Source: a virus. Taken from it: a stretch of DNA of 64,000 nt. Of the stretch, positions 17,518 through 41,074 are shown piece after piece (the first letter of the stretch is position 1; each line of letters starts with the position of its first letter). Location of the stretch: IMG/VR virus record IMGVR_UViG_3300014839_000005, positions 64,501 through 128,500 of that record. The stretch is one strand, 5' to 3'. The position numbers and the translations under genes were made by a program. The notes beneath the pieces were generated by a model. That model was not told the origin of the DNA and ran no database searches. It saw only the letters and a program-made list of their open reading frames with translations.

Positions 17518-17535
17518 TTAAAAAGGAGAATTACT

Positions 17536-17979: not shown

Positions 17980-18020
17980 TATTGAATTATTTAATGTTAA
18001 CATTAAAATAGGAGAGAACC

Positions 18021-18527
18021 ATGTTAGATATCAAAACCCCGCTTAGCAAATGCACTCGCGTTTCCAGGAAAATTTTTGATCTTTCTACGTTTACCGCTCT
18101 TCCTGGAATATGGCTCAAAGTAAATAATGATGGTTCCGTACAGAATGTCGGAACAAGTTCAAATCCTGCAGTAGCGAAACTCTGCATTGGAAGTTGCACT
18201 GACAATATCTATGAGAGTCATGATGTTGAAGTTGGTAGGATTACAACTCTTGAAACTATCGGCGTCAGATATGCTGTTGATGCTGATGGTTATAATGGTG
18301 CCACTTTCTATCCTGGTGAATATCTTGCTGTTGATTCTGCTTCTACTTTTGAGGGGAAGCTTTCAATGGCAGCGAATGGCGAGACAGTTGTTGCAGTTGT
18401 TGAGGGTTGGGATGGAATTAATGGTCTTCTGACCGTTATCACAGTTGATCCATCCATTATGCCGTCGGTAACGCAGACGACTACCACTACAACGACGACA
18501 ACGACAACTACAACGCCGGCTCCATAA
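18021..18527 (+). CDS. Capsid decoration-like protein, paralog 2, with a poly-Thr tail
   Basis: Paralogous core plus C-terminal TQ-T13-PAP. Confidence 0.6.
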   Translation: MLDIKTPLSKCTRVSRKIFDLSTFTALPGIWLKVNNDGSVQNVGTSSNPAVAKLCIGSCTDNIYESHDVEVGRITTLETIGVRYAVDADGYNGATFYPGEYLAVDSASTFEGKLSMAANGETVVAVVEGWDGINGLLTVITVDPSIMPSVTQTTTTTTTTTTTTTPAP

Positions 18528-18547
18528 TAAAAAAGAAGGAGTGATAA

Positions 18548-19249
18548 ATGTTAAATATTTTAACATTGCTAAATAAAACCGTTAGGGTCACAAGACAAGT
18601 GAATCTTAGTGGTTTTACAATTGAACCTGGAATGTGGGTTCAAGTTGACAATGACGGCGTTGTCTCCAATATTACGACTGGAACCGCTCCTGCAACTGCA
18701 AAATTATGTATTACTCCAGTTACTGGAAATACATATGAAAGTCATGATGTCAAAGTCGGTCATATTACGACGATGGAAACAATTGGTTGCAGATATGAAG
18801 TGAGTAATGTTGGTTTTACTGGCGGATATTTAAGCAAAGGTGCTTATCTTACAGTTGATACTACTGCTGGGAATAAAGGAAAATTGAGATATGCTCTTGG
18901 TGGAGAACGTGTAGTTGCTGTTGTGGAAAAATATGATTCTGGTGCTGGACTTTTAACTTGTATGATTGTTTCCCCTATTCTTAAGGGAGCGCAATCAAGT
19001 CCGTCAGCATCTGAAAGTCCATCAGCTTCTACCAGTCCTAGTAGTTCAACAAGCGCCTCTGTAAGTCCGTCAGCATCTACTAGCCCTAGCAGTTCAGCTA
19101 GTGCGTCTGTCAGTCCGTCGGCGTCTACAAGTCCAAGTAGTTCAACTAGTGCTTCTGTCAGTCCGTCGGCGTCTAAAAGTCCTAGCAGTTCAGCAAGTAG
19201 GTCTATAAGTCCGTCGGGTTCTGTAAGTCCTAGTGCAAGTGCATCGTAA
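18548..19249 (+). CDS. Capsid decoration-like protein, paralog 3, with an 83-aa Ser/Pro/Ala repeat tail
   Basis: Paralogous core plus an alternating-Ser tail. Confidence 0.6.
   Translation: MLNILTLLNKTVRVTRQVNLSGFTIEPGMWVQVDNDGVVSNITTGTAPATAKLCITPVTGNTYESHDVKVGHITTMETIGCRYEVSNVGFTGGYLSKGAYLTVDTTAGNKGKLRYALGGERVVAVVEKYDSGAGLLTCMIVSPILKGAQSSPSASESPSASTSPSSSTSASVSPSASTSPSSSASASVSPSASTSPSSSTSASVSPSASKSPSSSASRSISPSGSVSPSASAS
18998..19246 (+). repeat. Coding serine-rich repeat, 16-aa unit SPSASTSPSSS[T/A]SASV about x3 plus partial units
   Basis: Directly visible in translation; Ser at essentially every second residue. Confidence 0.9.
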
Positions 19250-19330
19250 GGTTTATGGGGTTGAGCCTTAATCAACCCCAAGTATTATAACTGTTACTAA
19301 ACTTATTCAAATTATTCAAGGAGTCTTATT

Positions 19331-20350
19331 ATGATTAACGACATCAGTGTAACCCAGTTTAACGAGTCCTTCCTTGAAAAGGTTGCGACAGTTGCTGGTC
19401 AAGCTGAACTCCAAGAGTCTGGTCGTCAGTATGTGAAGACAGAACTCATGGAAGCAGCGTTTTCAAGGGCTATTATTCCACAGGAGCCGATCACAACGGC
19501 AGATTGTCAGCGTAACGTCAAAGACAATTCTCTGTATATCATCAGGGATATCGAACCTACAGCATATGCTGTTGGTGTAGATAATCTTGGTGAGCCGGAC
19601 GGCCAGTATGTAAAGGGCGAAAGGTATATCATACCTATCGTCAATTTCGTGACAAAGCGTTTCCAGATTACGGTTGAAGACCTCAGGGCTTATCAGTATA
19701 AGATCACGAAGAGGATCGAAGATAAGTCAGTTCCTGTTCTTGAGAAGTTGGAAGATAAGTTCTTCCTCCGCCTTATGGGTGCTGCTCTCAGCATTTCCAA
19801 AAAAGGCGTAAAGTATACTGGTTCGCCAACAGTTGATCTTTATATTGCGCACGGCGATATGGTCAAACTGAAGAATACATTGGCTTCTGGTATCAATGCC
19901 AATGATCCAAAGCGCAAAGAGGTTGCCTGTGTTCTGATGTGTCAGGAAGTATGGGAAACTGTTGTTGTTCTGCCAAACGTCGGTGATGACTTTGGTAAGG
20001 ACCGTGTGCTGAATGGCATCACGTCGGATACTCTCCATGGAACGAAAGTGGTTCGCACGATCAAGAGTGATATCCTTCCTATGGGTCATCTCTGGGCGTT
20101 TACGAATCCTGATTTCCTTGGTCACAACTTCGCATTAGGCGATCCTTCTTTTGAGATCAAGTCGACTTTCGGTCTCATTGAATGGCAGACAAAGGAATCT
20201 ATTGGTATGGGTATCGGTAATGCGATGTCTTCGACGCTTCTGACTCTTAAGGGCTCGAAGGCTCCTGGAACATCGACGAATCTTGAGATTTCTGCAGATG
20301 GTACAATTGATGCGGATATCTCGACATATTATGCTTCGTTGACGGTGTAA
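19331..20350 (+). CDS. Major capsid protein (HK97-like fold)
   Basis: 339 aa, downstream of protease/scaffold/decoration genes, AAGGAG RBS, C-ending-rich codons, followed by a strong terminator. Confidence 0.8.
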   Translation: MINDISVTQFNESFLEKVATVAGQAELQESGRQYVKTELMEAAFSRAIIPQEPITTADCQRNVKDNSLYIIRDIEPTAYAVGVDNLGEPDGQYVKGERYIIPIVNFVTKRFQITVEDLRAYQYKITKRIEDKSVPVLEKLEDKFFLRLMGAALSISKKGVKYTGSPTVDLYIAHGDMVKLKNTLASGINANDPKRKEVACVLMCQEVWETVVVLPNVGDDFGKDRVLNGITSDTLHGTKVVRTIKSDILPMGHLWAFTNPDFLGHNFALGDPSFEIKSTFGLIEWQTKESIGMGIGNAMSSTLLTLKGSKAPGTSTNLEISADGTIDADISTYYASLTV

Positions 20351-20375
20351 GTCTCCTTTGGTGGATGGTGATGGG

Positions 20376-20411
20376 AAAGGCCTGGCCTGACAAACGGGCT
20401 GGGCCTTTTTA
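20376..20411 (+). terminator. Intrinsic terminator after the capsid gene
   Basis: AAGGCCTGGCC/GGCTGGGCCTT stem followed by a T-run. Confidence 0.8.
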
Positions 20412-20428
20412 GCTTAAAGGTAAAATGA

Positions 20429-20728
20429 ATGTTATATAAAAATATTTCAGATACTCCAGTTTGGATACTGTGCAATAGCATGAAGACCTTGGTATGTCCT
20501 GGGGAAGTTATTAATTTAAGTATTCCTGATATTAATCATTCAGGATCAACAATGAGATTTTTTGAATCTCTTGCTAAACATCAGGTTGTAAAAACAAATG
20601 GATGGGATATGGCGGAGAAATTAAAAAAAGATCCCATTGCTCAAAAAATCAATGATGAAAATATGCCTGAATTAACGATAGAAAAAAATTTACTTTCTGA
20701 TAAAGCTTCAATAAATGAGGGTAAATAA
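20429..20728 (+). CDS. Hypothetical head/neck-region protein
   Basis: 99-aa ORF directly after the capsid gene. Confidence 0.55.
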   Translation: MLYKNISDTPVWILCNSMKTLVCPGEVINLSIPDINHSGSTMRFFESLAKHQVVKTNGWDMAEKLKKDPIAQKINDENMPELTIEKNLLSDKASINEGK

Positions 20729-20730
20729 TT

Positions 20731-21216
20731 ATGGCTATATTAACTGAAGCTGATTATATTTCTGCTTTAAGAGATTTTATTAAAGATTATGCTGAACTAA
20801 ATAGACTATTAAAATTTCGTGAAGAAAATAAAGGAAATTTAATAAGTCTATATTTAAATATGGCTTTGGGGTTTTTAAATTCAATTCCTCCATTAATTGC
20901 ATCTTTTGATTTTTCAACATTTCCAATACCGAGTTTATTACTTCATCAAAGTGCAATAGAGGCCTTAATATCAAATGGAATATGCCAGGCGAGAAATGAC
21001 CTTACTTATAACAATGGCGGTATTACAGTTAAAATAAGTGATAAAGAACGTTATTTACAGTTTATACAATTATTAACTAGAATAGCTGACAGCGAAATTA
21101 ATAATTTTAAACAAATGAAAGTTAGCATTAATATTGATAATGCTTGGGGTGGAGTTTCAAGTCCTTACAACACAATACATGGTAATTTGCCTATTAAGCC
21201 GAATAGCATCTTATAG
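20731..21216 (+). CDS. Putative head-tail adaptor (neck) protein
   Basis: About 160-aa helical protein two genes after the capsid gene; positional inference. Confidence 0.55.
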   Translation: MAILTEADYISALRDFIKDYAELNRLLKFREENKGNLISLYLNMALGFLNSIPPLIASFDFSTFPIPSLLLHQSAIEALISNGICQARNDLTYNNGGITVKISDKERYLQFIQLLTRIADSEINNFKQMKVSINIDNAWGGVSSPYNTIHGNLPIKPNSIL

Positions 21217-21246
21217 TTCAATGACTTACAAAAGGAGTTATGTTTT

Positions 21247-21990
21247 ATGAAAAAAGATGAATTACTTAAAATGGCTAAAGAGAACAAGGAAGTTGCTGAC
21301 GCTATCATTTTTCTCACAAAATCAGCTCAAGCTGCAACAAATTTTGATGAATCAGTTCCAGCGGTTGGTGGTGCTGCTGAGCAACAGGGCACTGGCGCTG
21401 CCCCAATAGGACAGGCAGCCCCAGTACAGGCTCCTGCCGGCGCTGCAGCCGTCCCAGCTGACCAACAGGCACTTCAAATGGCTGGTGGTGGACAACCGGC
21501 TGTCGACCCCGCTGCAGAAGGTGCTAAGGCCGCTCAGGCTTTCCTAGCCCCTGCATTTCAGGCAGCTGCTCAAGGTGACGCTAACGCACAGCAAACTATT
21601 GCTTTGGCGGCTGGACAGATTGCCAGGGGTGTTGCGGAGGCTGCTAATGAAGCTTCTGGTGGAGGTGGAGGTCAAATACCGCCTGAAGCAGCTGCGGGTG
21701 CTCCAGGCGCTCCAGCAGCCCCAGCAGTACCAGCAACACCTGAATCTCAGGTTGCTGATCAAATAGTAGCTTCTCCTGTTCAGGCTAAAGCAAATGCTAC
21801 TCCAGAAGGTGAGCAGGGCGCAGAAGAGCAAAAAGCTGAAGGAGAAGGTGATGGAGCTGCTGAAGCAAAAGATAAAGATAAAAAAGAAAAAGACAAAAAG
21901 AAACCACCATTTGAAAAGAAATCAGAATTAATGTTCAGCGCTGACACTGTTCGTGGATTAATTCAACTGTCAAAGGCTGGAATTATTTAA
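21247..21990 (+). CDS. Ala/Gly/Pro/Gln-rich low-complexity protein
   Basis: AAGGAG RBS, disordered central region, acidic/basic C-terminus. Confidence 0.7.
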   Translation: MKKDELLKMAKENKEVADAIIFLTKSAQAATNFDESVPAVGGAAEQQGTGAAPIGQAAPVQAPAGAAAVPADQQALQMAGGGQPAVDPAAEGAKAAQAFLAPAFQAAAQGDANAQQTIALAAGQIARGVAEAANEASGGGGGQIPPEAAAGAPGAPAAPAVPATPESQVADQIVASPVQAKANATPEGEQGAEEQKAEGEGDGAAEAKDKDKKEKDKKKPPFEKKSELMFSADTVRGLIQLSKAGII

Positions 21991-22015
21991 TTCTGTTCTT
22001 TATTTTGTCTTAAAC

Positions 22016-22043
22016 AAAGGGCGGAAACAACCGCCCTTTTTTA
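22016..22043 (+). terminator. Intrinsic terminator
   Basis: AAAGGGCGG-AAACAA-CCGCCCTTT plus T-run. Confidence 0.85.
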
Positions 22044-22052
22044 ATATAATGG

Positions 22053-22703
22053 TTGGGTAATTATGTAAATTTAGCTATATTTTATATGATGGAGATAAAT
22101 TTTATAATTACGTGTTTTAATAAAGAGCAATATTGGCCTTATCTGCGTACTATATTAAATTCATATATAAAGATCCAACCTCATATCGCATATTGTTACA
22201 ATGGAAAAAATGAAAAAGAAATATGTGATTTTAAATGTGAAAATAGAGGACAATCTCCAGGCGATGCTGACTTAATTATTGGAGGATATAGATTATTAAA
22301 GAATAATGGTATTAAAAAATGGATAAAATTAAGTGTTGATAGTTGGTTATTAAATGAAGATATAATATTAGATATATTTAATAATATGGAAAAAAAAAAT
22401 ATGTGGTATGGTGGGGCTACATGGGTTCATTCTAACCATATGGCAACAGATATAATTTTTGCAACTACTGAATTATTAGAAGAATTTTGCAATTCAATGA
22501 AAGAATTTAATAAGAATATCAACATGCCACTTGAACAACACATGTATAAAATAGTAACAAAAAGAAAATATTATTTAATTCCAGGAAGGCATCCCGTTCC
22601 CTATGGATCAGAAGGAACACGACATATTGCTAACTCTCTTGGATGGACAATGCAGCATAAATTAGAAGATAATATCGCCTTTATGAATAACTATCATCAA
22701 TGA
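22053..22703 (+). CDS. Putative GT-A-like glycan-modifying protein (start may be ATG 22086)
   Basis: First gene of the glycosylation cluster; KLSVDSWL resembles a DxD-region strand. Confidence 0.45.
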   Translation: MGNYVNLAIFYMMEINFIITCFNKEQYWPYLRTILNSYIKIQPHIAYCYNGKNEKEICDFKCENRGQSPGDADLIIGGYRLLKNNGIKKWIKLSVDSWLLNEDIILDIFNNMEKKNMWYGGATWVHSNHMATDIIFATTELLEEFCNSMKEFNKNINMPLEQHMYKIVTKRKYYLIPGRHPVPYGSEGTRHIANSLGWTMQHKLEDNIAFMNNYHQ

Positions 22704-22725
22704 CCTTAACATTAAGGATACTTTC

Positions 22726-24303
22726 ATGAGACTTACTATTGGAATGCCGGCTTATAAAAATTTTACTGAAGTCTGGTTCACAGTTCAGTCTTTACGACTT
22801 TATCAAGATTTAACAGATTGTGAGATTTTAATCGTTGATAATTTTGGCGATAAAGATTTAGAAAACTTTGCAAAAAATGATGGAAATGGAATAGTACGTT
22901 ATGAGAAATTTACTAATATCGTAGGTACAAGTGAGGTAAGAAATAAAGTATTTGATTTTGCAAAAGGTGAAATGGTGTTATGTATGGATTCTCATGTCAT
23001 GCTTAAGCCTGGTGCATTAAAAAATATTCCAGTAACAGATAATTTAATTCATGGTCCCTTATTATATGATAACACCAAAGGTTATACCTGCGAATGGAAA
23101 CCAATATGGCGTGATCATATGTGGGGAATATGGGGTGATTATCTCAATAAACTTCCCGAACAGCCATTTGAAATATGGGGGGCTGGTCTTGGAATATTCT
23201 TAGCAAAGAAAAATTCATGGCTTCGTTTTAATGAAAATTTCAGAGGTTTCGGTGGTGAAGAAGGTTACATTCATGAGAAATATCGAAAAGCCGGCAGAAA
23301 GGTAATGTGCTATCCCAATCTTGTCTGGATGCATTTATTTAAAAAACCAATACCTTATCCATTAAATATGATTGATAGGGTTAGAAATTATATCATAGGC
23401 TTCGAAGAACTTGGTCTTGATACTAAACCAATACAAACTCAATTTGATGCTAAAATGGTAGCAGATGCATATCAATTAATTAAGAGTTCAAAGGTTGTAG
23501 TAGAAAAACCTCTCAGTAATAAAATATCCTGCGTAATGACTACCTATCGAAGATTTACCTGTGTAGAACGTTCAATTGCTATGTTCTTAAATCAGGATTA
23601 TAAGGGTGAATCAGAACTTATTATTTATAATACTGATATTGAACATGCTTTAATTTTGGGAGATAATTTAAAAAATAAGAATATAAAAATATTCAATTGC
23701 GCTATTGATTCCGTAACTCATCAACCATATACAAATATCGGCGCTATTCGAAGAGATGCTGTGGCAAAGGCAACTGGTGGATATTATATATGCTGGGATG
23801 ATGACGATATCTTTCTTCCATGGAATAATAGACAGGGAATGGATGGTATACAAAGGTATAAAACAAAAGCTTTTAAACCAGAACGTTCATTTTTTGCTAG
23901 AAAAACAGGAGTTGAACTTGCTAAAAATACAATGGAAGCCAGTGTTATTGTTTCATTGAAAGAAGTAAATTTTGCAATGAAGACTGGCTCAGAACACTTG
24001 CTATGGTATACAAGATTAAGAGATATGGGACAATTAAAAGAAAATTCTACTGATTCAGTACCAGGATATTCTTTTAATTGGAGCGATCCTCCACAAGTAG
24101 CTGGACATAAACAAAGTGGACAAATTGATAATCCTAATAATTTTGAGAATCATAAATTACAATCTACAGATTTCGCAAAACGACCATTAGAACTTATAAA
24201 TCTAAACGGTATCTATCAACCATATTATGATTATTTTAAAACACATAAAGATCAATTCAATCCCGAATATTATAATAAGTATGTAGTTCCATATCTTAAA
24301 TAA
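22726..24303 (+). CDS. Two-domain glycosyltransferase (ppGalNAc-T/GT27-like plus GT2)
   Basis: LTIGMPAY, IVDN, CMDSH, GFGGEEG in domain 1; SCVMTTY, IRRDAV, WDDDD in domain 2. Confidence 0.85.
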   Translation: MRLTIGMPAYKNFTEVWFTVQSLRLYQDLTDCEILIVDNFGDKDLENFAKNDGNGIVRYEKFTNIVGTSEVRNKVFDFAKGEMVLCMDSHVMLKPGALKNIPVTDNLIHGPLLYDNTKGYTCEWKPIWRDHMWGIWGDYLNKLPEQPFEIWGAGLGIFLAKKNSWLRFNENFRGFGGEEGYIHEKYRKAGRKVMCYPNLVWMHLFKKPIPYPLNMIDRVRNYIIGFEELGLDTKPIQTQFDAKMVADAYQLIKSSKVVVEKPLSNKISCVMTTYRRFTCVERSIAMFLNQDYKGESELIIYNTDIEHALILGDNLKNKNIKIFNCAIDSVTHQPYTNIGAIRRDAVAKATGGYYICWDDDDIFLPWNNRQGMDGIQRYKTKAFKPERSFFARKTGVELAKNTMEASVIVSLKEVNFAMKTGSEHLLWYTRLRDMGQLKENSTDSVPGYSFNWSDPPQVAGHKQSGQIDNPNNFENHKLQSTDFAKRPLELINLNGIYQPYYDYFKTHKDQFNPEYYNKYVVPYLK

Positions 24304-24315
24304 TGGAGGTAGTTA

Positions 24316-24888
24316 ATGGGCGATTTGACTAATAATATAAGTTATAAAGAATTAAGACCATTCGGAACTCCTGATACATGGAAACCCGCCTTTCCATTAC
24401 AAGAATTAATGATTAGAAATCTTGCTAAAAATATTCAAATTGTAATAGATAGAGTTGGTGGTCACGTTACTTTTTCAAGTGGAGTAAGAGAAGCGTCTGA
24501 TTATAATAGATTGGTTAAAGAAGGATATAATCCTTCTCCTAAATCAGATCATTTTTGTGGAAATATTGTTCCAGTTGACCCAATTCAACAGCCAGATAAC
24601 TATAAACAATTTGGCCCCTTTTATATGTTTGCTGTTGGGGCTGCTGATACAATCCCAACAATAATTATTAATGATTTTTTTAATGCTGCTGTTAATCTTA
24701 ATAAGATTGGAATAACTAATTTTGGGCAGGTAATACATGAGAAAGACCCTATAAAAAAAACAGAATGGGTTCATCTTTCAAATAATAAAAGTACATTTTT
24801 TTCTAAAGATATATGCAATATTGATCCTAAATCGCCATACTTATATACTATAGATGGCGGAAAAAGTTATAATGTATATAATGGATAA
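24316..24888 (+). CDS. Peptidase M15-like protein (possible endolysin)
   Basis: SSGVR, SDH, AAD and WVHLS zinc-ligand pattern. Confidence 0.7.
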   Translation: MGDLTNNISYKELRPFGTPDTWKPAFPLQELMIRNLAKNIQIVIDRVGGHVTFSSGVREASDYNRLVKEGYNPSPKSDHFCGNIVPVDPIQQPDNYKQFGPFYMFAVGAADTIPTIIINDFFNAAVNLNKIGITNFGQVIHEKDPIKKTEWVHLSNNKSTFFSKDICNIDPKSPYLYTIDGGKSYNVYNG

Positions 24889-24901
24889 CTAAAGGAATTT
24901 T

Positions 24902-26662
24902 ATGACTGTAAGCATTAGTTCAATACTTGTTAATGGTCAAATGGCGGCTACAGTATTAGTTGGAGAACAAGCAACTATTACTGTCGTAGTTCATAGTAAT
25001 ATAGGTGGAATGCGATATGATTGGTGGAAAGAAAATGAACTAGATGAAAACAGCCCATCTTATTTAGGCGAAGGAGATCATAATGGCAATTACATTATTC
25101 CTTCGTGTACATTAGAAAATAATGGAGAATATTGGTGTGAAATTTCAGATACAGATGGGCCAGATGTGTCGAGCAATGTTACACTTCATGTTTTAAGTAC
25201 TACGACAACAACCAGCACAACGCCGGTTCCTACTACAACTGGACCTACTACCACAACCACGCCGGCACCAACTACGACTACTACGATAGCGCCGTCAACC
25301 AGCACGACTCCAGAACCGACAACCACTACTACACCAGCGCCGACTACGACCACAACTACTACTCGCGCTCCCACTGATTATTTAACAGCATATATAGAAA
25401 TTAATGGGCTTCAATCTATACAGCTCCCATATCAAGCAACTGCTACAATAATAGTTTATACTACTGGTGTGGTTGGTACATTAACTTATGATTTTTATAA
25501 ATTAACTGATGATTATGATGACCCTATTCAATCAGGCCCAAATAATACATACGTTATAAATTCATGTGGAGAAAATGATGTTGGAGATTATTATTGCATT
25601 GTAACAGATGATATGAATTCTACTGATAGAACTGATTGGAAATCTGTATTAGCAGGTTATGTTTATTTATTGGTTTATGGATATCCTACAACTACTACGA
25701 CAACCACAACGACCTCAACAACTACAACTACTTCTACAAGTACAACAGCGGCTCCTCAACCAGCAGAAGCTACTACGACAAGATATCCGCCTGTTACAAC
25801 GACAACACTTCCGCCAAGTACATTAACTAGTAAGATTTGTTTTTCTGAATTAGAGGTAATTAAAACTATAGAGAATTCTCATTATCTTGAATGGAATATA
25901 ATTCCTGATCCAACAATTCCAACTGAAGTAGTTGATGATTACAATTTCAGAATATGGTATAGTAGAAATCCAGAATTTGGATTTGTTGATTTAGGTGTTT
26001 TAATCGATGGAGCCATAGGCCCATTATCGTATACACATACAGAAATTCAATATGATTTCAGTCAAGACCATTATTATAAAATTGAATTAATTGCTAAAGC
26101 CGATTCTAATGCTTATAAATTTTCTGAAATGCAATTTATAGGAGAAAATTTTAATGGATTACATGATACAATGCGATATGCCGAATCATTATTATATGAA
26201 TATTATGATGGGGAGCCATCATATATAGTAAAAAAGAAAGTTACAGGAGCACACTGTCCAGAATGTTGGAGTACTTTTAGACAGCAAAGAATTAAGACAG
26301 TTTGCAATACTTGTCATGGTAGTGGTTTTGCTGATGGATATTATAGCGCCATTCTTGTACAAATGGCTTATGATGCTGATCCTAAACAATCAAAACTTGA
26401 AGAAACATCTGAAGATTTAACAGTAACTCTTCAAGCAAGAATATCAAATTATCCATTAATAAGAAATAAAGATATAATTATAAATAAAGATACAAGAAAA
26501 CGTTATATAGTTTTAAAAGTAAACGTAACAAAACTACCTAAATTAAGCGAAAATCATCATATATATTCTAAACAAAATTATGTTATAAGTCAAATATTAT
26601 GGCTTAAAGAATTAAATTCTTCTGATATTCAGTATAATATTAATGTGCCAGGTTTAGAATGA
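24902..26662 (+). CDS. Neck/head-closure-like protein with two Ig-like domains and Thr-rich stalks
   Basis: YxWxK...YWC/YYC Ig pattern twice, poly-Thr/Pro linkers, C-terminal CPEC...CNTCHGSG zinc finger. Confidence 0.65.
   Translation: MTVSISSILVNGQMAATVLVGEQATITVVVHSNIGGMRYDWWKENELDENSPSYLGEGDHNGNYIIPSCTLENNGEYWCEISDTDGPDVSSNVTLHVLSTTTTTSTTPVPTTTGPTTTTTPAPTTTTTIAPSTSTTPEPTTTTTPAPTTTTTTTRAPTDYLTAYIEINGLQSIQLPYQATATIIVYTTGVVGTLTYDFYKLTDDYDDPIQSGPNNTYVINSCGENDVGDYYCIVTDDMNSTDRTDWKSVLAGYVYLLVYGYPTTTTTTTTTSTTTTTSTSTTAAPQPAEATTTRYPPVTTTTLPPSTLTSKICFSELEVIKTIENSHYLEWNIIPDPTIPTEVVDDYNFRIWYSRNPEFGFVDLGVLIDGAIGPLSYTHTEIQYDFSQDHYYKIELIAKADSNAYKFSEMQFIGENFNGLHDTMRYAESLLYEYYDGEPSYIVKKKVTGAHCPECWSTFRQQRIKTVCNTCHGSGFADGYYSAILVQMAYDADPKQSKLEETSEDLTVTLQARISNYPLIRNKDIIINKDTRKRYIVLKVNVTKLPKLSENHHIYSKQNYVISQILWLKELNSSDIQYNINVPGLE
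25196..25375 (+). repeat. Coding mucin-like Thr/Pro repeat (PTTTTTPAP-like units)
   Basis: Direct translation; a second stretch lies at 25685-25822. Confidence 0.9.
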
Positions 26663-27273: not shown

Positions 27274-27284
27274 GAGTTAATAGT

Positions 27285-28870: not shown

Positions 28871-28881
28871 GGGATGCTATC

Positions 28882-30624: not shown

Positions 30625-30626
30625 AT

Positions 30627-31322: not shown

Positions 31323-31327
31323 ATAAT

Positions 31328-32005: not shown

Positions 32006-32013
32006 AGATAACA

Positions 32014-32979: not shown

Positions 32980-32998
32980 TTGAAAGGATGGCTACTTC

Positions 32999-34618
32999 AT
33001 GGACCTCTCTGTGATAATACCGGCTAGAAACGAAGAGTTTCTGCAACAAACAATTGATTCTATAACAAAAGCTATCAAGGCTGATACTGAAGTTATAGCA
33101 GTGTTGGATGGTTATTGGCCTGAAGTAGGCCTTGCAGATCATCCTAAAGTTAGACTGATTCATCATACTGAATCAATAGGACAAAGAGCTGCAACAAATG
33201 AAGGGGTGAAATTAAGCGAAGCAAAATATATAATGAAAATAGATGCTCATTGCGCTATCGATGAGGGATTTGATGTTAAGATGATGCAGGAAATGCATCG
33301 TGATTGGACGATGATTCCAAGAATGTATAATCTTCACGTATTTGATTGGAAATGTAAAAAATGTAATAATCAAACTTATCAAGGCCCCAAACCAACAAAA
33401 TGTGAAAAATGTGATAATACAACTGAATTCGAAAGAATAATGATTTGGACTCCTCGTTGGAATAGAGTTTCAGATTTTGCAAGATTTGACAGCACTCTTC
33501 ATTTTCAATATTGGGGGGATTTTAAAAAACGTCCTGAAGCTCAGGGCGATATATGTGATACTATGAGTCAGATTGGTGCATGTTGGATGATGGAAAAAGA
33601 TCGCTATTGGGAACTTGGTGGCTTAGATGAAAATCACGGTTCGTGGGGACAAATGGGTACTGAAATATCCTGCAAAACATGGTTATCTGGCGGTAGGCAA
33701 GTTGTTAATAAAAAAACATGGTTCAGTCATTTATTTAGAACTCAGCCAGGATTTGGTTTTCCTTATCCCAATCCAGGAATTGGAAAAGCTAGGGAACATT
33801 CAAGAAAGTTATGGATTGAAAATACATGGCCTGGAGCAAAGTATCCTTTAAAATGGCTTATTAAAAAATTTGGTCCTGTTCCTGACTGGCCCGATGAAAC
33901 AAGTAAAAAAGTTTCAAAAGGAGTCATATATTATACTGACAATCTTCCCGATCCATTAATATTGGAAATATGTCAAAAAAATATTCTTCAAAGATGTAAT
34001 GGATTTGATATTGTATCAGTTTCTTTAAAACCAATACCACACTTTGGTCGTAACATTGTTCTTCCTCTTGAGCGTGGTATTATAACAATGTTTAAACAAA
34101 TATTAACAGGACTTGAAGCCTGTACAGCTGATGTCGTATATATGTGTGAACATGATATGATTTATCATGAAAGTCATTTTGATTTCGTTCCTCCGAAAGA
34201 AAATGTATACTATTATAATGAGAACACATGGAAGGTAGATTCTATAAGTGGCCAAGCATTGTTTTATTATTGCAAACAAACTTCAGGACTTGTTGCTTAT
34301 AGAAAACTTCTTGTAGAACATTATAGAAAACGTATTGCAAAAATGGAGGCCGAAGGCGGCATATATAACAGAAGCACGGGATTTGAGCCTGGAACTCATT
34401 CAATGCCGAGAGGAATAGATAATTATCCAGCAGAAAGATTTTTTTCTGAAGTTCCTAATATAGATATAAGACACACTGTAAATCTTACTCGTAATAGATG
34501 GCGTCAAGATCAATTCAGAAATCAGAAATCATGTCAAGGTTGGAAAATGGCTGATGATGTTCCAGGATGGGGAAAATCAAAGGGAAGATTCAAGGATTTT
34601 CTGTTGGAGGTATTATGA
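32999..34618 (+). CDS. Two-domain glycosyltransferase (ppGalNAc-T-like with zinc-ribbon insert, plus a VYYT-family domain)
   Basis: SVIIPARNE, KIDAHC, CKKC...CEKC, LGGLDE..GSWG..GTEISCKTWLSGG; C-terminal IYYT, CEHDMIY. Confidence 0.85.
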   Translation: MDLSVIIPARNEEFLQQTIDSITKAIKADTEVIAVLDGYWPEVGLADHPKVRLIHHTESIGQRAATNEGVKLSEAKYIMKIDAHCAIDEGFDVKMMQEMHRDWTMIPRMYNLHVFDWKCKKCNNQTYQGPKPTKCEKCDNTTEFERIMIWTPRWNRVSDFARFDSTLHFQYWGDFKKRPEAQGDICDTMSQIGACWMMEKDRYWELGGLDENHGSWGQMGTEISCKTWLSGGRQVVNKKTWFSHLFRTQPGFGFPYPNPGIGKAREHSRKLWIENTWPGAKYPLKWLIKKFGPVPDWPDETSKKVSKGVIYYTDNLPDPLILEICQKNILQRCNGFDIVSVSLKPIPHFGRNIVLPLERGIITMFKQILTGLEACTADVVYMCEHDMIYHESHFDFVPPKENVYYYNENTWKVDSISGQALFYYCKQTSGLVAYRKLLVEHYRKRIAKMEAEGGIYNRSTGFEPGTHSMPRGIDNYPAERFFSEVPNIDIRHTVNLTRNRWRQDQFRNQKSCQGWKMADDVPGWGKSKGRFKDFLLEVL

Positions 34619-35064
34619 GTTTTGTAGTTGTGTTTAGTAAAGAAACGGGACGTATACGTTCAATTTTTGTTCCCGATAATGATGAACAAATAAAAGATCT
34701 TTTATATTTAGATGGGGAAGATTCTATAATATTTGATGATAAAGAAGTGCCACCATTAGAAGATTTACAAAAATTAGTCAGTGATAAAACAGGATTAATT
34801 CCTAAAGATGATAGATATGCAGTAGTTGATGATAAAGGAGAAGTTAAAGCAATTATAATTGCAGATCCAAAATGTGGAGACAGTATTAAAGATCATGAAT
34901 TAATAGCATCCATTGATGCCGAAATGCAAGATGTTTATGATAAAAGCGCCCAAGTGTTCATAAAATCAGTAAAAGAAACTACTACAACACCAAGACCAGA
35001 ACCATCTCCTTCTCCAGCTATTATAGATGTTACTGATGTTACTGATATTAAAAAAATCGGCTAA
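34615..35064 (+). CDS. Hypothetical tail-fibre-associated protein
   Basis: GGAGG RBS with ATGA overlap; acidic; short TTTTPRPEPSPSP segment. Confidence 0.55.
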   Translation: MSFVVVFSKETGRIRSIFVPDNDEQIKDLLYLDGEDSIIFDDKEVPPLEDLQKLVSDKTGLIPKDDRYAVVDDKGEVKAIIIADPKCGDSIKDHELIASIDAEMQDVYDKSAQVFIKSVKETTTTPRPEPSPSPAIIDVTDVTDIKKIG

Positions 35065-35067
35065 TTT

Positions 35068-36300
35068 ATGGCGTATGTATACATATTATCTGGCACTTCT
35101 TGGGCTGGTGCCCATACTGATGGAAGTAACATCAAGGTTGAATGTATTGGTGGTGGCGGCGGAGGAATATCAAGTACAACTGTTATTGATGGTGGTGGAG
35201 GAGGAGAATATCGAACATCAACAGTAGCATATACATCAGATACAACCATAAATGGGATTCAAATTGGGCAAGGTGGAACAGGTGGAACTACTGGTGGAGA
35301 TGCAACAAACACAATATGGAATACTAATGTTGTAATAGCGGTAGGTGGAAAGGGAGCAGTTGCCGGCGGTGCAGGTGGCACTGGAGGAACAGGAACTACT
35401 GGATATGTTGGTGGTGGAGCACTTGGTCCTGGAGGATATGCTGGTGGATCAGGGGGAGGTGGAGCGGCTGGACCAGCTGGAAGAGGTCAACCAGCTGGAT
35501 CACGTACTGGTGGTGGAAACACAAAAGGTGGTGCTGGTGGCGGTGGAGCTGGTAATGGAAGCGCAGTAGCAACAACAAATTCTAGTACTACTTCAGGTAC
35601 TGACGGGGGAGATGGCCCAGGAGGAACAGGGCATGGAACTGGATCGACTTCAAATGTTGCTCCTGGCGCTGCATCAGCAGGTGGTGGTGGAGGTGGAAGT
35701 TTTAGTGATGGTTCGTATCCAGGCGGAGCTGGATCAACAGCAACCAGTTGGGATGCCGGATATGGCCCTGGTGGTGGCGGCGGAGGAGGCGGTAGGGCAA
35801 ATAGTGGTGGAAATGGTGCATTATATGGGGGTGGTGGAGGAAATTCTGGATATCGTTTAGCTGCAGAAACTGGTGGTAATGGCGCTAATGGTATTATCGT
35901 TATCACTTATACTCCACATGCTCCATCGGCATCAGTCAGCCCTTCAGCTTCACGTAGTCCATCGGCATCGCAAAGTCCTTCAGCTTCAATTAGCCCATCA
36001 TCCAGTGCATCAGCTTCTTTAAGTCCTTCTGCATCTATAAGTCCCTCGTCTAGTGCATCAGCATCTAGAAGTCCTTCAGCATCAATTTCTCCATCATCAA
36101 GCGCTAGTAAGTCACGATCTCCTTCAGCCAGTAGAAGCCCTTCGGCTTCGAGAAGTCCATCAGCAAGTATTTCAAGATCAGTAAGTCCGTCAGCTTCTAT
36201 AAGTCCGTCGGAATCCGCAAGTCCAAGTGAACCAATATCAAATTGGTTTTTATTACATATGAAGAATTATATTTATAATACAACAAATCAAATGAGGTAA
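35068..36300 (+). CDS. Glycine-rich tail-fibre-like protein with a serine-rich repeat
   Basis: CIGGGGGG start and GGNGANGIIVITY end typical of phage Gly-rich domains; about 105-aa alternating-Ser tail. Confidence 0.7.
   Translation: MAYVYILSGTSWAGAHTDGSNIKVECIGGGGGGISSTTVIDGGGGGEYRTSTVAYTSDTTINGIQIGQGGTGGTTGGDATNTIWNTNVVIAVGGKGAVAGGAGGTGGTGTTGYVGGGALGPGGYAGGSGGGGAAGPAGRGQPAGSRTGGGNTKGGAGGGGAGNGSAVATTNSSTTSGTDGGDGPGGTGHGTGSTSNVAPGAASAGGGGGGSFSDGSYPGGAGSTATSWDAGYGPGGGGGGGGRANSGGNGALYGGGGGNSGYRLAAETGGNGANGIIVITYTPHAPSASVSPSASRSPSASQSPSASISPSSSASASLSPSASISPSSSASASRSPSASISPSSSASKSRSPSASRSPSASRSPSASISRSVSPSASISPSESASPSEPISNWFLLHMKNYIYNTTNQMR
35920..36234 (+). repeat. Coding serine-rich repeat (SPSAS[R/I/Q/V] and SPSSSASAS units)
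   Basis: Direct translation. Confidence 0.9.
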
Positions 36301-36303
36301 TAT

Positions 36304-37446
36304 ATGGCATTTGTACATTACGGTGTATCTCCAACAAATGTAGTACTTAGAATAAAATTGATGAATAGAAAATCAATGGAAGGTGATGGGTTGACGGGAG
36401 TATCTAATACATCAACGGGATTAATTATAAGTACTATTAAAATTAATGAATCTACTCCAGTTACTTATCAAAGTTCAGATTCTACTATAGATAGTATTAC
36501 AACTCTTGGAGTGTATCAAGTGCCAACTGCGGGACATTGCAGATTTAGAGAATTAGATCCCACAAATAATCCTGGCATTTATGAAGTTCAATTTGAAAAT
36601 TCAAGATTTCAAAATACTGATTCTTTTCTTTTATCTCTTTCTGGAGCTTACCATCTTGCTGAATTTGACGGAGTGGTTCAATGTAAAAACTTGGCAGCAG
36701 ATATGGAACAAATTCAAGGAGCAGATGTTAATACTGATGAAGCTCAGGTTGGAGTAAATGTTGTAAGCCAGAATAATATCGATTTTGGTACATTACAAAA
36801 AGAATCTATTGATGAAATTATCACAAATAATGAACAGATACAAGAAATACATACGGCTGTCATGGCTGGAGAAGGAATATATTCAGTAACATTACATCTG
36901 CAGACATCTCCTGGCGCTCCAATTAATGATGCGAGTATTCAAATATTCGATCAAAGCGAATTAACTTTACAAGCTGTCGGAGAAAGCGATGTTGATGGTA
37001 ATAAAGTTTTTGCCCTTGATGCTGGAACGTATCATATCCTTATTTCCAAACAAGGGACATATAGTTTTACAGTTCCAGAAGTAATAACAGTAACTGGGAA
37101 TGCGACATTTACATTCGTCGGAACCCCCGTTCCTATAGTTCCTCCAACAGCAAATTGCCAACTTGTTTATTTGTATCCCATTGATATTTCTAGTGTAATA
37201 AGTACTTGCGATGAAATTACAATAACTCCATCCAGCGATATTCAAAATCCATATATCTTGGTTCGAAATAAAGTTAAAATGCAATATATTGCCGCACGTG
37301 GACGCTATGAAGCTAATATTATTAAACAATCAGAAGTCACTGTAGATGGTTGGAGCAAGGGAAGACAGTTCATATATGGAACTGGAATAATTGATACTGA
37401 CGCAACAAAGAATTTAGTTGATTATGAATGGATTACATCGCAGTAA
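36304..37446 (+). CDS. Putative virion structural protein (beta-rich)
   Basis: Co-oriented within the tail cluster; beta-sandwich-like C-terminal half. Confidence 0.5.
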   Translation: MAFVHYGVSPTNVVLRIKLMNRKSMEGDGLTGVSNTSTGLIISTIKINESTPVTYQSSDSTIDSITTLGVYQVPTAGHCRFRELDPTNNPGIYEVQFENSRFQNTDSFLLSLSGAYHLAEFDGVVQCKNLAADMEQIQGADVNTDEAQVGVNVVSQNNIDFGTLQKESIDEIITNNEQIQEIHTAVMAGEGIYSVTLHLQTSPGAPINDASIQIFDQSELTLQAVGESDVDGNKVFALDAGTYHILISKQGTYSFTVPEVITVTGNATFTFVGTPVPIVPPTANCQLVYLYPIDISSVISTCDEITITPSSDIQNPYILVRNKVKMQYIAARGRYEANIIKQSEVTVDGWSKGRQFIYGTGIIDTDATKNLVDYEWITSQ

Positions 37447-37526
37447 GAATTTTGAAATAGTTGTAAATATCGCTTTAGAATACTATATTATATTAGGAGG
37501 CTCTCAAATACGGAGAAATTATATAA

Positions 37527-38444: not shown

Positions 38445-38464
38445 TTTAATTAAAGGAGAATGAT

Positions 38465-41074
38465 ATGTCATACCAGGGCCCAAATGTATCAGTACAACAA
38501 AATTTTTTAGCGACTCCTCCGGCTACTGCAGTTGAAAATCTGCCCCCTGCCGGAATAGGAACAGCATATGATGTATATAGTAAAGAAGCTCTCGGAACAT
38601 CATATGGTATACATTCAAATACCTTTCTTTGGGGAGCTGACGATGTCATATGGGGTGAAAGTGTTATTGGAGATCGTCTTTATAATTTTTATCCCGTGAC
38701 AGCTTATGCAAATCCAACATTAAGGTATAGAAATACCGCTTCTCTTGGTAATATTGCCATCAACCCGACAAAAAGTTCTACAGGAATCACACTTGGCAAA
38801 GATGACAGATATACAGTTCCGAATACGGAACAACTTGAAGGCCTTTGCGAAGCTTTTATTCCCTACTATCACAAAACTCTTGGAACTGATAAGGTTCAAA
38901 TTCTTGCTGGAAAACTTGATACTGTAATTGCCACTGGAGCTTCTTTTGCAACATCAAAACTTCAACCAGGACAGGCAGTAATTGCTGGTAATGCTGCTAG
39001 TTTAGCTTCATTTGTTTTACTTGGAACTATTCAATCTGTTGGTATCGATGAAATTACTATTAAATTGACAAAAGCTTATTCAGGCGCTGTCAGTTTTGAT
39101 ACTATCATCATCGGTACTTCAACAGTTGGTGGTGATCATGATTTTGATGATCTTGATAATGCTAATTGTCTGTATGACCCTAATGCCGATTTTATTACTA
39201 ATCAAGTTAATGTCGGAGATCTTGTTAGATTTTCAAGTCTTGCTCTTGGATCAACTAATGTATTTACCGCATCAATTACTTCAGTAGTAAATAAAAACAT
39301 GATTCAGTTTAATACTATTGAGTCTACTGCCGGTGAGGAAGATTTTAATTTTTATACTTATTTTCCGAAGAATAGAGACTCACAGGCAACTCCTGCTTCA
39401 ACAGTTGCAATTTCTACATATCGCATTGAACGATTTGTTGGATTTTCACAGAATTATGGTTTTTCCAGTATGGATTGTGTAAGACTTTCTGATACTTCAT
39501 TTGCAATTGCCGTGAGTAAGGGAGCGGCACTTCTGAGTAAAGGTGATTATATTGCGGCCACAGTACTTGATATTACAACTCCTACACATTATTACATAAT
39601 CGATACAGTTACTATAGGAACAATCACTATTTCTGGGACAACTACTACAACAACTACCTCGACTACGGCAGCTCCTGAACTTTATCAGATTTATACAACT
39701 CTTGAGGTTATTCTTAATGATGCTGACAGCGCTATTGCAACAGGTAATTTCATTCATGCCTGGCACCCTATGATTACCAGCAATATTCTTGCTGATTTCA
39801 GGGCTGTTCGTCCTGAAGAGTATATGATTGCCAAACGCATTACCAGTCAGCAGGATATAGTGACTGCATGGTGCAAAGACAATGTTATCAGCCCATATAA
39901 TGAACTGGCATATGCAATGTCAATTGCTCTTTCTTCTGCAGGTGGTAATGTTTGTTATGGAATTAATGTTAATTCAACTGCTATTAATCTTTCCGCAGAA
40001 TATGCAGAAGCAATGGAAGAACTTAAAATGCTTGATATATACAGTCATTTCTTCTGTACGACTGATAGCGGTGTAAACGCTCTTATGTCTCCATATTGTT
40101 TGGAACAATCCGAACCTTATGAAGCTCATGAGCGCATCGGACTTCTTTGCTATGATTCTCAGGATGTTTATTTACAGGGCGTAGGAACAGGAACAACAAA
40201 TTCAGGTGGAGTTATTACTATAGCATCTGGAACAATCAATCTTCCTGTTATTGGAGTTAGTAAGGGTGATGCGGTTGAAATTTATAATAGTAATGGTGTT
40301 TATAAAGCAACCGTTAATGTTATATCAACACCATCATCTGCAATTCCTAATGTGTGTGATACAGATGGTGATAATGCTTATAGTAGTGCTACTATGACAT
40401 TTAAATTCATGTCCAATAGGAAAGATGATCAAGCCATCAGGATAGGCGCTCTTGCTGCAGGTGATCGTCGTGTATCAATCGTGTGGCCTGGATGGTTTGA
40501 TGCTAATATTGGAACTACCGCACTTACTTTGCCTCCGTATTATATTGCAGCGGTAATTGCTGGTATGGATAGTGTTAATAATCCAGCTCAGTCTTTCACG
40601 AATAAGAATTTTTCAATTCCTGGTGTTTCTAATATTCAATTGAACACAAATTCTTATTTCAGGAAAGCGCAGTTGGATACTATTGGCGGTGGCGGTATCG
40701 ATATCATGATTCAAGACGGAAGTATCTCGCAGGTTATTCGTTCACGTCATGATTTGACAACGAATATGGATGCCGTCGAATATAGGGAACGCTCTATCAC
40801 AAAACAGGCTGATGTATCAGCCAAAACACTCCGTAATTCGATTAACCCATATGTCGGTAAATATAATATTACCGGATCTTTACTTACTTTTATAGGTCAA
40901 GTTTGCGCTATTGTTGCTACGACTCTCGTTAAAAATGGTATTATTGCTAATATGTCAATTGGATCAATCGTAAGAGATAAAAATATCGCCGACAAGATTA
41001 ATATTAATGTAACAACAACGGTCTTTGTCGCCGGTAATTACTATGATATTCAGATGCTTATCGTTTCGAGGTAA
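38465..41074 (+). CDS. Contractile tail sheath protein (enlarged)
   Basis: C-terminal sheath-like region (RHDLTT, ERSITKQAD, PYVGKYN), followed by a tube-sized gene; internal poly-Thr insert. Confidence 0.8.
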   Translation: MSYQGPNVSVQQNFLATPPATAVENLPPAGIGTAYDVYSKEALGTSYGIHSNTFLWGADDVIWGESVIGDRLYNFYPVTAYANPTLRYRNTASLGNIAINPTKSSTGITLGKDDRYTVPNTEQLEGLCEAFIPYYHKTLGTDKVQILAGKLDTVIATGASFATSKLQPGQAVIAGNAASLASFVLLGTIQSVGIDEITIKLTKAYSGAVSFDTIIIGTSTVGGDHDFDDLDNANCLYDPNADFITNQVNVGDLVRFSSLALGSTNVFTASITSVVNKNMIQFNTIESTAGEEDFNFYTYFPKNRDSQATPASTVAISTYRIERFVGFSQNYGFSSMDCVRLSDTSFAIAVSKGAALLSKGDYIAATVLDITTPTHYYIIDTVTIGTITISGTTTTTTTSTTAAPELYQIYTTLEVILNDADSAIATGNFIHAWHPMITSNILADFRAVRPEEYMIAKRITSQQDIVTAWCKDNVISPYNELAYAMSIALSSAGGNVCYGINVNSTAINLSAEYAEAMEELKMLDIYSHFFCTTDSGVNALMSPYCLEQSEPYEAHERIGLLCYDSQDVYLQGVGTGTTNSGGVITIASGTINLPVIGVSKGDAVEIYNSNGVYKATVNVISTPSSAIPNVCDTDGDNAYSSATMTFKFMSNRKDDQAIRIGALAAGDRRVSIVWPGWFDANIGTTALTLPPYYIAAVIAGMDSVNNPAQSFTNKNFSIPGVSNIQLNTNSYFRKAQLDTIGGGGIDIMIQDGSISQVIRSRHDLTTNMDAVEYRERSITKQADVSAKTLRNSINPYVGKYNITGSLLTFIGQVCAIVATTLVKNGIIANMSIGSIVRDKNIADKININVTTTVFVAGNYYDIQMLIVSR

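Follow-up and report, generated by a model that had tools for sequence, protein, structure and literature searches.

The virion module and its accessory islands

The 64,000-nucleotide window analysed here (positions 64,501 to 128,500 of IMG/VR record IMGVR_UViG_3300014839_000005) is the second half of a single linear 128.5-kb viral record; positions below are window coordinates, and genes are named by their first coordinate. Glycosyltransferase (GT) genes lie here among virion genes, several of whose products bear Ser/Thr/Pro-rich tracts. We put the probability at roughly 0.7 that these genes encode a self-contained cytoplasmic O-glycosylation system for virion proteins, in which two predicted pairs of enzyme and acceptor tag operate side by side. 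The record has a G+C content of 34.5% and a CheckV completeness estimate of 71%, and many studies have recovered near-identical DNA in metagenomes of peat, permafrost and freshwater.

Every gene from 14046 to 41933 is on the + strand, and together these genes form the virion module. They encode, in order, a protease-like protein (identified by a weak PHROG match), two scaffold-like proteins, the paralogs 17536, 18021 and 18548, the putative major capsid protein (MCP) 19331, head-completion proteins, an enzyme-rich region, the sheath-like protein 38465 and the tube-like protein 41112. Two accessory islands, at 22053 to 24303 and 26659 to 37446, both lie in the head-to-tail junction. The features most relevant to the proposed system are as follows.

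17536 to 17979, + strand: capsid decoration (cement)-like protein, untagged paralog
18021 to 18527, + strand: decoration-like paralog with a C-terminal poly-Thr tag (18462 to 18524)
18548 to 19249, + strand: decoration-like paralog with a C-terminal SPSAS tag of about 85 amino acids (18995 to 19246)
19331 to 20350, + strand: putative MCP, untagged
22726 to 24303, + strand: two-domain GT2 enzyme of island 1, Thr-tag-linked, with DSH in its N-domain and an SpsA-like C-domain
24902 to 26662, + strand: virion-module protein with N-terminal Ig-like (Hoc-like) domains, two mucin-like Thr/Pro linkers (25190 to 25375 and 25679 to 25831) and a C-domain (residues 312 to 586)
27285 to 28148, + strand: single-domain GT27-like GT-A enzyme (DAHC), paralog of the 32999 N-domain
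32999 to 34618, + strand: two-domain enzyme, Ser-tag-linked core, with a GT27-like GT-A domain (residues 1 to 300) and a C-domain (residues 304 to 539)
34567 to 35064, + strand: small island protein with a C-terminal T/P/S tail (34972 to 35022)
35068 to 36300, + strand: Gly-rich fibre-like protein with an SPSAS array of about 105 amino acids (35914 to 36237)
38465 to 41074, + strand: tail-sheath-like protein with a poly-Thr loop insertion (39620 to 39682)

Ser/Thr/Pro tracts on virion proteins

A first-pass annotation of this DNA had listed seven Ser/Thr/Pro-rich positions near the enzyme genes, and all seven proved to be real and correctly placed. When tracts are defined strictly (at least 10 of 12 residues being S, T or P), they occur in 5 of the 27 genes between 17000 and 41100 and in none of the 145 genes in the rest of the 128.5-kb record. 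The sixth carrier in the region, 35068, is recovered by a looser filter only, which its Ala-diluted SPSAS array requires. Every Thr codon is used in the tracts, as are the AGY and TCN boxes of Ser, and selection therefore acts on the amino acids rather than on a slippery DNA repeat.

In a freshwater contig of low depth (run X6), 84 nt of the 35068 array (36103 to 36188) are missing in frame, a weak hint of tract-length polymorphism given a flank of only 22 nt. The protein at 21247 to 21990 is also of low complexity and is not of the Ser/Thr type: it is rich in Ala, Gly, Pro and Gln, has a Lys-rich end, and is conserved whether or not a relative has the islands.

The three decoration-like genes lie directly before the putative MCP gene. 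The untagged 17536 protein is 54% identical to 18021 and 48% identical to 18548. This phage has one untagged paralog, one with poly-Thr and one with SPSAS, or one paralog per tag. The AlphaFold2 model of 18021 has a predicted local distance difference test score (pLDDT) of 90, and its tail is modelled as coil. Nearly all of the roughly 45 top Foldseek matches of this model are small auxiliary chains of phage capsid reconstructions (template modelling scores 0.55 to 0.61, with weak E values of 1e-3 or worse), including Sf11, BB1, XM1, the TW1 capsid-stabilizing protein, phiCD508, Pam3 and T1. The fold is therefore probably like that of decoration or cement proteins, and the tail is predicted to be disordered and displayed on the capsid surface. 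The expectation that the capsid carries acceptor segments was borne out for head proteins, but the tagged ones are decoration-protein paralogs and not the MCP.

The 19331 protein has no family or PDB sequence match. It is the most conserved product (72-80% identity to relatives), and its gene follows the protease- and scaffold-like genes, which suggests that it is the MCP. More generally, neither the PHROGs collection (for MCP, decoration, sheath, tube or fibre proteins) nor Pfam (for head proteins) gave a match, and profile searches of the PDB with the MCP, sheath and decoration families yielded no sequence relatives, so these identities rest on fold, synteny or weak matches.

The 24902 protein has an Ig_3 match (E 3e-9) and a weak Hoc-like PHROG match. 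Its C-domain is common to all relatives, has viral hypothetical proteins as its nearest Atlas clusters, and is the only part of the protein present in island-free relatives. Thr/Pro linkers had been ascribed to it under the label of a neck protein; the linkers are present, but the label could not be confirmed. For the sheath-like 38465, the C-terminal 45% matches a virion structural protein of Salmonella phage Arash (tblastn E 4e-10), which has a PAAR spike tip among its neighbouring genes and is followed by a tube-sized gene, and Atlas leads point to DUF3383 and the sheath family Phage_sheath_1C; PDB and Pfam searches with 38465 returned no match. A tblastn search of the GenBank phage collection gave only four distant sheath-like matches and nothing useful for the GT proteins. 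The poly-Thr loop of 38465 is absent in island-free relatives, and the sheath-like protein of a relative designated G005 carries a poly-Ser insert of about 68 amino acids located about 40 residues upstream in the same domain. Of the two tagged products encoded wholly within island 2, 35068 has a homolog of 2,623 amino acids in relative L039. The 34567 gene, which probably begins at the ATG near 34615, belongs to a recurring arrangement, as a small tagged gene directly after a GT gene is seen in other loci.

Two enzymes resemble the initiators of mucin-type O-glycosylation

The 32999 N-domain and 27285 resemble the eukaryotic polypeptide N-acetylgalactosaminyltransferases (ppGalNAc-Ts, CAZy family GT27). 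A single-sequence search of the PDB with the 32999 N-domain finds GalNAc-T2 at E 2e-6. With the family profile, GalNAc-T1 is found at E 2.5e-11 in an alignment that spans both the DxH half and the Gal/GalNAc-T-motif half, and the 13 best matches are all ppGalNAc-Ts. The AlphaFold model (pLDDT 92) has exclusively GalNAc-Ts as its top Foldseek matches (E ~1e-15), and an all-against-all structural search (VIA) gives Z 27.0 for GalNAc-T1 (root-mean-square deviation 2.5, 263 amino acids) and 24.8 for TgGalNAc-T3, compared with 18.6 for the best non-GT27 chain. The 27285 protein (PF00535, E 3.5e-12) is 38% identical to the 32999 N-domain (E 1e-61). The likeness to GT27 that had been proposed from the letters thus holds, and is specific for these two enzymes, by PDB profile, Foldseek and VIA.

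Short motifs point the same way. The DSH of 22726, the DAHC of 27285 and 32999, and the GalNAc-T-like segment ELGGLDENHGSWGQMGTEISCKTWLSGG of 32999 are all present as first described. Residues D82, H84 and H244 of 32999 do not vary among 44 members of the family, and in the alignment with GalNAc-T2 they fall on its DSH and GHVFR positions, which form the metal site of a DxH and a downstream His. The segment SWGQMGTEISCKTWLSGG aligns to the Gal/GalNAc-T motif (WGGENxEISFRxWxCGG) in both phmmer and hmmsearch, and the 32999 family shows little or no variation at the retained WG, E-IS, W and GG.

Several features are unlike those of ppGalNAc-Ts. There is no Ricin Pfam match in 32999, and where the ricin B-type lectin domain sits in those enzymes, residues 304 to 539 form a GT-A/nucleotidyltransferase-like domain that resembles IspD/MobA-like folds (Z 11-12 by structural search). 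Neither 27285 nor 32999 has a hydrophobic segment that could serve as a type II membrane anchor, and these enzymes would hence act in the cytoplasm and not in the Golgi. Inserted in the catalytic domain of 32999 is an invariant four-Cys zinc ribbon (CxxC...CxxC, residues 117 to 146), and overall identity is about 20%. For these reasons (the missing lectin domain and anchor, the zinc ribbon and the IspD/MobA-like second domain), we call the family GT27-like and do not count it as a member of GT27. The ribbon itself has a weak RCKP-type rubredoxin-like match, and one source misnames a homolog 'ribosomal protein L37E'.

GalNAc-Ts prefer Pro at positions +1 and +3 relative to the acceptor residue, and the SPSxS unit would place Pro favourably in this respect.

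The 32999 family comprises more than 6,100 proteins at E <1e-5, many of them 55-65% identical over their full length, and is found on 495 IMG/VR stretches and in 124 contigs of metagenome-assembled genomes (MAGs). The scale of the system had been thought unusual for a tailed phage; these numbers show that it is not unusual among uncultured phages. Many of the MAG contigs are binned as Patescibacteria (candidate phyla radiation, CPR) or DPANN archaea. In genome collections the family occurs on MAG contigs only, including CPR-sized chromosomes of about 0.9 Mb (CP066693.1 and OZ246401.1). The MAG loci (L137 to L216) may be prophages or cases of cellular use of the system, and offer a hint at hosts.

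Each enzyme family accompanies its own tract type

Linkage was scored as a tract gene located within 10 kb of the enzyme gene. We examined 78 further IMG/VR loci of the 32999 family, whose enzymes are 47-62% identical, and 15 loci with a 22726-type GT2, none of which has GT27-like genes. An SPSxS (Ser-type) tract gene lies within this distance in 56 of the 78 loci and a Thr-type tract gene in none. At the 22726-family loci the tracts are poly-Thr in 11 of 15, mixed in one and Ser-type in none. The association between enzyme family and tract type is strong (Fisher p 8e-13, uncorrected), and after the loci are collapsed at 60% enzyme identity the expected tract is found in 20 of 25 clusters for 32999 and in 5 of 7 for 22726. 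When all 79 IMG/VR loci of the 32999 family are scored, 57 have a nearby tract gene, and 104 of the 106 tract genes are on the strand of the enzyme, often immediately downstream. Tract genes are also found near the family in 50 of 80 loci on MAG contigs. At least two GT27-like domains are encoded in 70 of the 78 loci. Given that the two families serve as each other's control, most of the concern over the base rate of low-complexity sequence is removed. The phage described here combines both enzyme-tag pairs.

Disordered Ser/Thr/Pro linkers can work unmodified, and the tracts could in principle be plain entropic spacers or bristles, with the enzyme cluster making a free or lipid-free oligosaccharide or another small-molecule glycoconjugate. 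We consider this very improbable, as it leaves unexplained both the residue-specific co-inheritance of enzymes and tracts and their adjacency on the same strand.

Relatives with and without the islands

About 30 IMG/VR relatives, with capsid proteins 72-80% identical, were compared. The islands are absent from L017, L019 to L021, L011+L041 and L024+L043, and the genomes behind L011 and L024 are complete (186 kb and 208 kb, respectively). Island-free relatives have the gene order MCP, 20731, 24316, 24902 C-domain, 37527 and sheath, with about 4.4 kb from MCP to sheath, and a single decoration gene of the untagged 17536 type. Among the 270 genes sampled from them (228 kb), none has a tract by the strict filter. 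Island-bearing relatives have two or three decoration paralogs, of which one is untagged and the others are Ser/Thr-tailed. By this comparison of gene content, the island brings enzymes, extra proteins (34567, 35068 and 36304) and tags on resident proteins all together. The 190-residue protein at 24316 to 24888 is conserved in all relatives, including the island-free ones, and has no family match; an SDH...D...WVH pattern noticed by eye recalls M15-type zinc peptidases, and the protein may be a virion-associated cell-wall hydrolase.

Thr tracts within this clade occur only where there are 22726 homologs, namely in this phage, in L027/L039 and in L029, all of which have both, and they are missing from L004/L045 and L005, which also lack 22726 homologs. 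Two apparent exceptions to the general rule were considered and set aside. L005 had seemed to keep GT genes without repeats, and in fact carries a SASES array of more than 500 residues in its 24902 homolog; this array (L005:17048-21022) is of the SASESASESASISPSASE type and strikingly resembles Gram-positive serine-rich-repeat adhesins. L028 had seemed to have repeats without GT genes, and proves to possess, just beyond the first locus examined, a different GT2/sulfotransferase cassette (L028/G005). Located between the 24902 and 37527 homologs (L044:409-5370), the G005 cassette encodes a weak radical-SAM-like protein, a 247-residue GT2, a sulfotransferase (PF03567, E 1e-17), a weakly matched methyltransferase and an IS605 TnpB. 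The tags on the G005 decoration, 24902-like and sheath proteins are pure poly-Ser, and this combination may be a third enzyme-tag pair, perhaps producing sulfated glycans. Across relatives, therefore, repeats and GT cluster occur together, and retention of the cluster without repeats, which had been named in advance as a finding that would count against the idea, was not seen. The computational checks suggested with the first-pass annotation all turned out favourable to it.

Sequences from other samples cover much of the same region. A 31.8-kb contig from a freshwater metagenome spans 19188 to 37400 with only 67 differences, so that the arrangement as a whole holds steady in another habitat as well. 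In two metatranscriptome libraries from peat, contigs identical to this DNA fill 28 of the 30 bins of 17500 to 37400, which is consistent with expression of the region, with DNA carry-over being possible. Contigs from these RNA libraries do not cover 34764 to 36091, a gap that is uninformative.

The remaining island genes and the likely target

The other genes of the islands are listed below.

22053 to 22703, + strand: island 1 open reading frame of unknown function
26659 to 27273, + strand: GIY-YIG/NUMOD3 homing endonuclease at the start of island 2, inside the enzyme cluster
28145 to 28870, + strand: GT-A glycosyltransferase (Glyco_tranf_2_2 and Glyco_transf_7C)
28882 to 29487, + strand: class I S-adenosylmethionine (SAM) methyltransferase (Methyltransf_24, E 1e-13)
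29436 to 30134, + strand: paralog of the 32999 C-domain (GT-A/nucleotidyltransferase-like)
30124 to 30624, + strand: possible second methyltransferase, with a motif-I-like LELGTG segment only
30627 to 31322, + strand: paralog of the 32999 C-domain (E 4e-18 to 32999 residues 309 to 535)
31328 to 32005, + strand: weakly TOD1/MUCI70 GT-like protein (E 0.0025, under the curated cut-off)
32014 to 32979, + strand: nicotinamide adenine dinucleotide (NAD)-dependent nucleotide-sugar C4-epimerase-like short-chain dehydrogenase/reductase (PF01370, E 3e-50)
36304 to 37446, + strand: island protein with a CarboxypepD_reg-like beta-sandwich and no tract

The cluster had been credited with about ten GT-like domains. 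Five GT-A domains have family support (22726-N, 22726-C, 27285, 28145 and 32999-N), and three more (32999-C, 29436 and 30627) are GT-A/nucleotidyltransferase-like by fold and paralogy only. The match of 31328 is below threshold, and 22053 is unsupported, having no Pfam, NCBIfam or PHROG match and no homolog in any relative with or without the island. The 22726 enzyme matches PF00535 (E 1e-14) in its N-domain, WcaA/PglI-like families over residues 266 to 383, and SpsA (E 3.5e-4). The sole PDB sequence match of 28145, beta4GalT7, is not significant (E 0.19). Of the two methyltransferases proposed, 28882 is firm, and its Methyltransf_24-type homolog accompanies the 32999 family in 54 of the 78 loci, but 30124 has no family match and was named from its LELGTG segment. 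The nucleotide-sugar epimerase is firm as well; the best PDB match of 32014 is 5u4q (E 1e-99), followed by a Bacillus UDP-glucuronic acid 4-epimerase, WbgU and WbpP, and within its own clade the gene is found in this genome only. The 26659 endonuclease gene overlaps the stop codon of the 24902 gene. For 36304, relatives of both kinds, island-bearing and island-free, yielded no homolog.

Many bacteria glycosylate Ser/Thr-rich linkers, and 28145, the methyltransferase and the epimerase look like elongating or tailoring enzymes. It is therefore reasonable to ask whether an O-glycosylation system of the host initiates on the tags, and the phage enzymes merely extend or remodel the glycans or supply precursors. 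We regard this as unlikely, because the GT27-like enzymes resemble initiating polypeptide transferases and not elongating ones, and because the island-free sisters, presumably on similar hosts, have no tags at all. The same enzyme-tag pairing also recurs in very different host bins, from Patescibacteria to Planctomycetota and archaeal MAGs.

A further alternative is that the transferases act on a non-protein target (host envelope glycopolymers such as lipopolysaccharide [LPS], teichoic acid or capsule, which seroconverting phages modify, or phage DNA), with the tracts being flexible bystander linkers. Most phage GTs described so far do modify DNA or host surface glycans (PMC12619734), sources annotate the 32999 family as 'glycosyltransferase involved in cell wall biosynthesis', and with a record that is 71% complete, partners of such a pathway may lie outside it. 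Even so, all island proteins are soluble, with zero transmembrane segments, and within the record we found no polytopic membrane protein, and specifically none that is GtrA-, flippase- or polymerase-like. Nor was a thymidylate-synthase (ThyA)-like hydroxymethylase found there, which speaks against DNA as the target and leaves the DNA-modification idea unsupported at this level of completeness. Tags are present on conserved virion proteins in island-bearing genomes only, and the nearest structures of 32999-N are enzymes that glycosylate peptides. LPS and DNA targets are thus disfavoured by the solubility of the proteins, the lack of membrane partners and of a ThyA-like gene, and above all by the residue-specific pairing, since a strict reciprocal relationship (56:0 versus 0:11) is hard to square with bystander tracts. 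We consider a non-protein target improbable, slightly more so than initiation by the host.

A predicted pathway and its weak points

The arrangement we favour is one in which the two accessory islands and the Ser/Thr-rich acceptor tags grafted onto virion proteins form a single system. The comparative evidence suggests that soluble enzymes in the infected cell would glycosylate disordered tags on the subunits before or during assembly. In the first predicted pair, the GT27-like 32999 N-domain and 27285 would start glycans on Ser residues of SPSxS in 18548 and 35068. In the second, the two-domain GT2 22726 would start on the poly-Thr and Thr/Pro tracts of 18021, the 24902 linkers and the sheath loop. 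Judged by family membership, the remaining GT-A-type domains (28145, the 32999 C-domain, 29436, 30627 and 31328) may extend the glycans, one or more methyltransferases may cap the sugars, and the epimerase may supply a C4-epimerised UDP-sugar. The resulting particle would have a head, sheath and fibres bearing disordered, glycosylated bristles. What the analysis establishes is the gene content, the folds, the motifs, where the tags lie and the comparative linkage; from these we infer the transfer of glycan to the tags, the enzyme that starts each tag, the sugars, and any biological role in shielding, adhesion or stabilisation. 'Mucin-type' in the GalNAc sense is not established, and a function as shield or adhesin is speculation.

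Several points weigh against this interpretation. There is no tract gene within 10 kb in 22 of the 78 loci of the 32999 family and in 3 of the 15 loci of the 22726 family, many of which are incomplete. A single phage clade supplied the base-rate control. On the MCP tree, island presence changes once, and the contrast within the phage's own clade is therefore one evolutionary event; with only one independent contrast, a co-evolution test on that tree was left out of the statistics. The decoration-like fold of 18021 is assigned from matches at E 1e-3 or worse, and the probable identities of the sheath protein, the MCP and 24902 have no PDB sequence matches behind them. The proposed assignment of an initiating enzyme to each tag comes from co-occurrence alone. 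Finally, the system as a whole is a construction from sequence, predicted structure and co-occurrence, and its glycans, glycopeptides and enzyme activities are predictions.

Comparison with known glycosylation systems

The likeness to ppGalNAc-Ts has several components: a GT-A domain with a metal triad of DxH and distal His and a Gal/GalNAc-T-like motif, ppGalNAc-Ts as the closest solved structures to 32999-N by sequence profile and fold, and presumed acceptors that are disordered Ser/Thr/Pro-rich repeats.

For glycosylated tailed-phage particles, the only established experimental precedent is a few mycobacteriophages (Che8, Corndog and Myrna; Freeman et al. 2023, as cited in PMC12619734 and PMC12582341), in which glycans are reported on the C-termini of capsid and tail-tube subunits. 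Those phages likewise encode glycosyltransferases for their own virion subunits and have terminal extensions as the sites of modification, features that are predicted here from the genes. The present locus differs in that its tags are carried by fibre-like proteins, a loop of the sheath and decoration proteins that have been duplicated, in having two predicted tag chemistries with separate enzyme families, in locating the enzymes inside the structural operon, and in its larger enzyme set with methyltransferase(s) and an epimerase.

Serine-rich repeat protein (SRRP) adhesins of Gram-positive bacteria provide an example of cytoplasmic O-glycosylation, in which soluble enzymes (GtfA/GtfB, GalT1) modify long serine repeats of the SASxSAS type (PMC6973325). 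The SASESAS array of L005 is very similar, and GalT1 (5hea) is among the weaker PDB matches of 32999. The products here are virion parts, however, and not secreted adhesins. A GT-B initiator of the GtfA/GtfB type and an accessory Sec system were not found among the island genes, whose glycosyltransferase families are all of the GT-A type and which encode no membrane or secretion proteins.

Giant viruses (chloroviruses and mimiviruses) encode soluble, host-independent glycosylation machinery with sugar-nucleotide enzymes, and place methylated sugars on capsids and fibrils (PMC4691112). Soluble virus-encoded machinery with sugar-nucleotide enzymes is a shared feature, deduced here from genes alone. 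Unlike the present phage, giant viruses infect eukaryotes, bear N-linked or fibril glycans, use other enzyme families and lack defined Ser/Thr repeat tags. A literature search of a limited collection returned no description of GT27-like enzymes, mucin-like Ser-repeat tags or tag-specific enzyme families in phages.

Implications

This locus contributes a Thr-specific second pair, the co-residence of both pairs, tagged decoration paralogs together with a tagged sheath loop, and an island-free sister clade. A broader proposal is that there exist modular, orthogonal 'glyco-tag' systems, with SPSxS served by GT27-like enzymes, poly-Thr by 22726-type GT2 enzymes and possibly poly-Ser by a GT2/sulfotransferase cassette, in which cassettes and tags are exchanged at a shared head-tail slot and attached to duplicated subunits. 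We hold this generalization tentatively, at a little less than even odds.

In structure the enzymes come closest to the proteins that initiate mucin glycosylation in animals, and the simple logic of tag and enzyme makes the proposed system directly testable. As candidate soluble O-glycosyltransferases for peptides, with acceptor tags that are short and defined, they could serve glyco-engineering. This locus and its hundreds of relatives suggest that many phages in the environment glycosylate their own virions, a matter relevant to the shielding, stabilisation or adhesion of phage particles in peat and freshwater, and to the origin of the GT27 fold. If the glyco-tag proposal is true, a phage could place different glycans at defined positions on its particle, and the catalytic core of mucin-type O-glycosylation would be placed in the prokaryotic virosphere.

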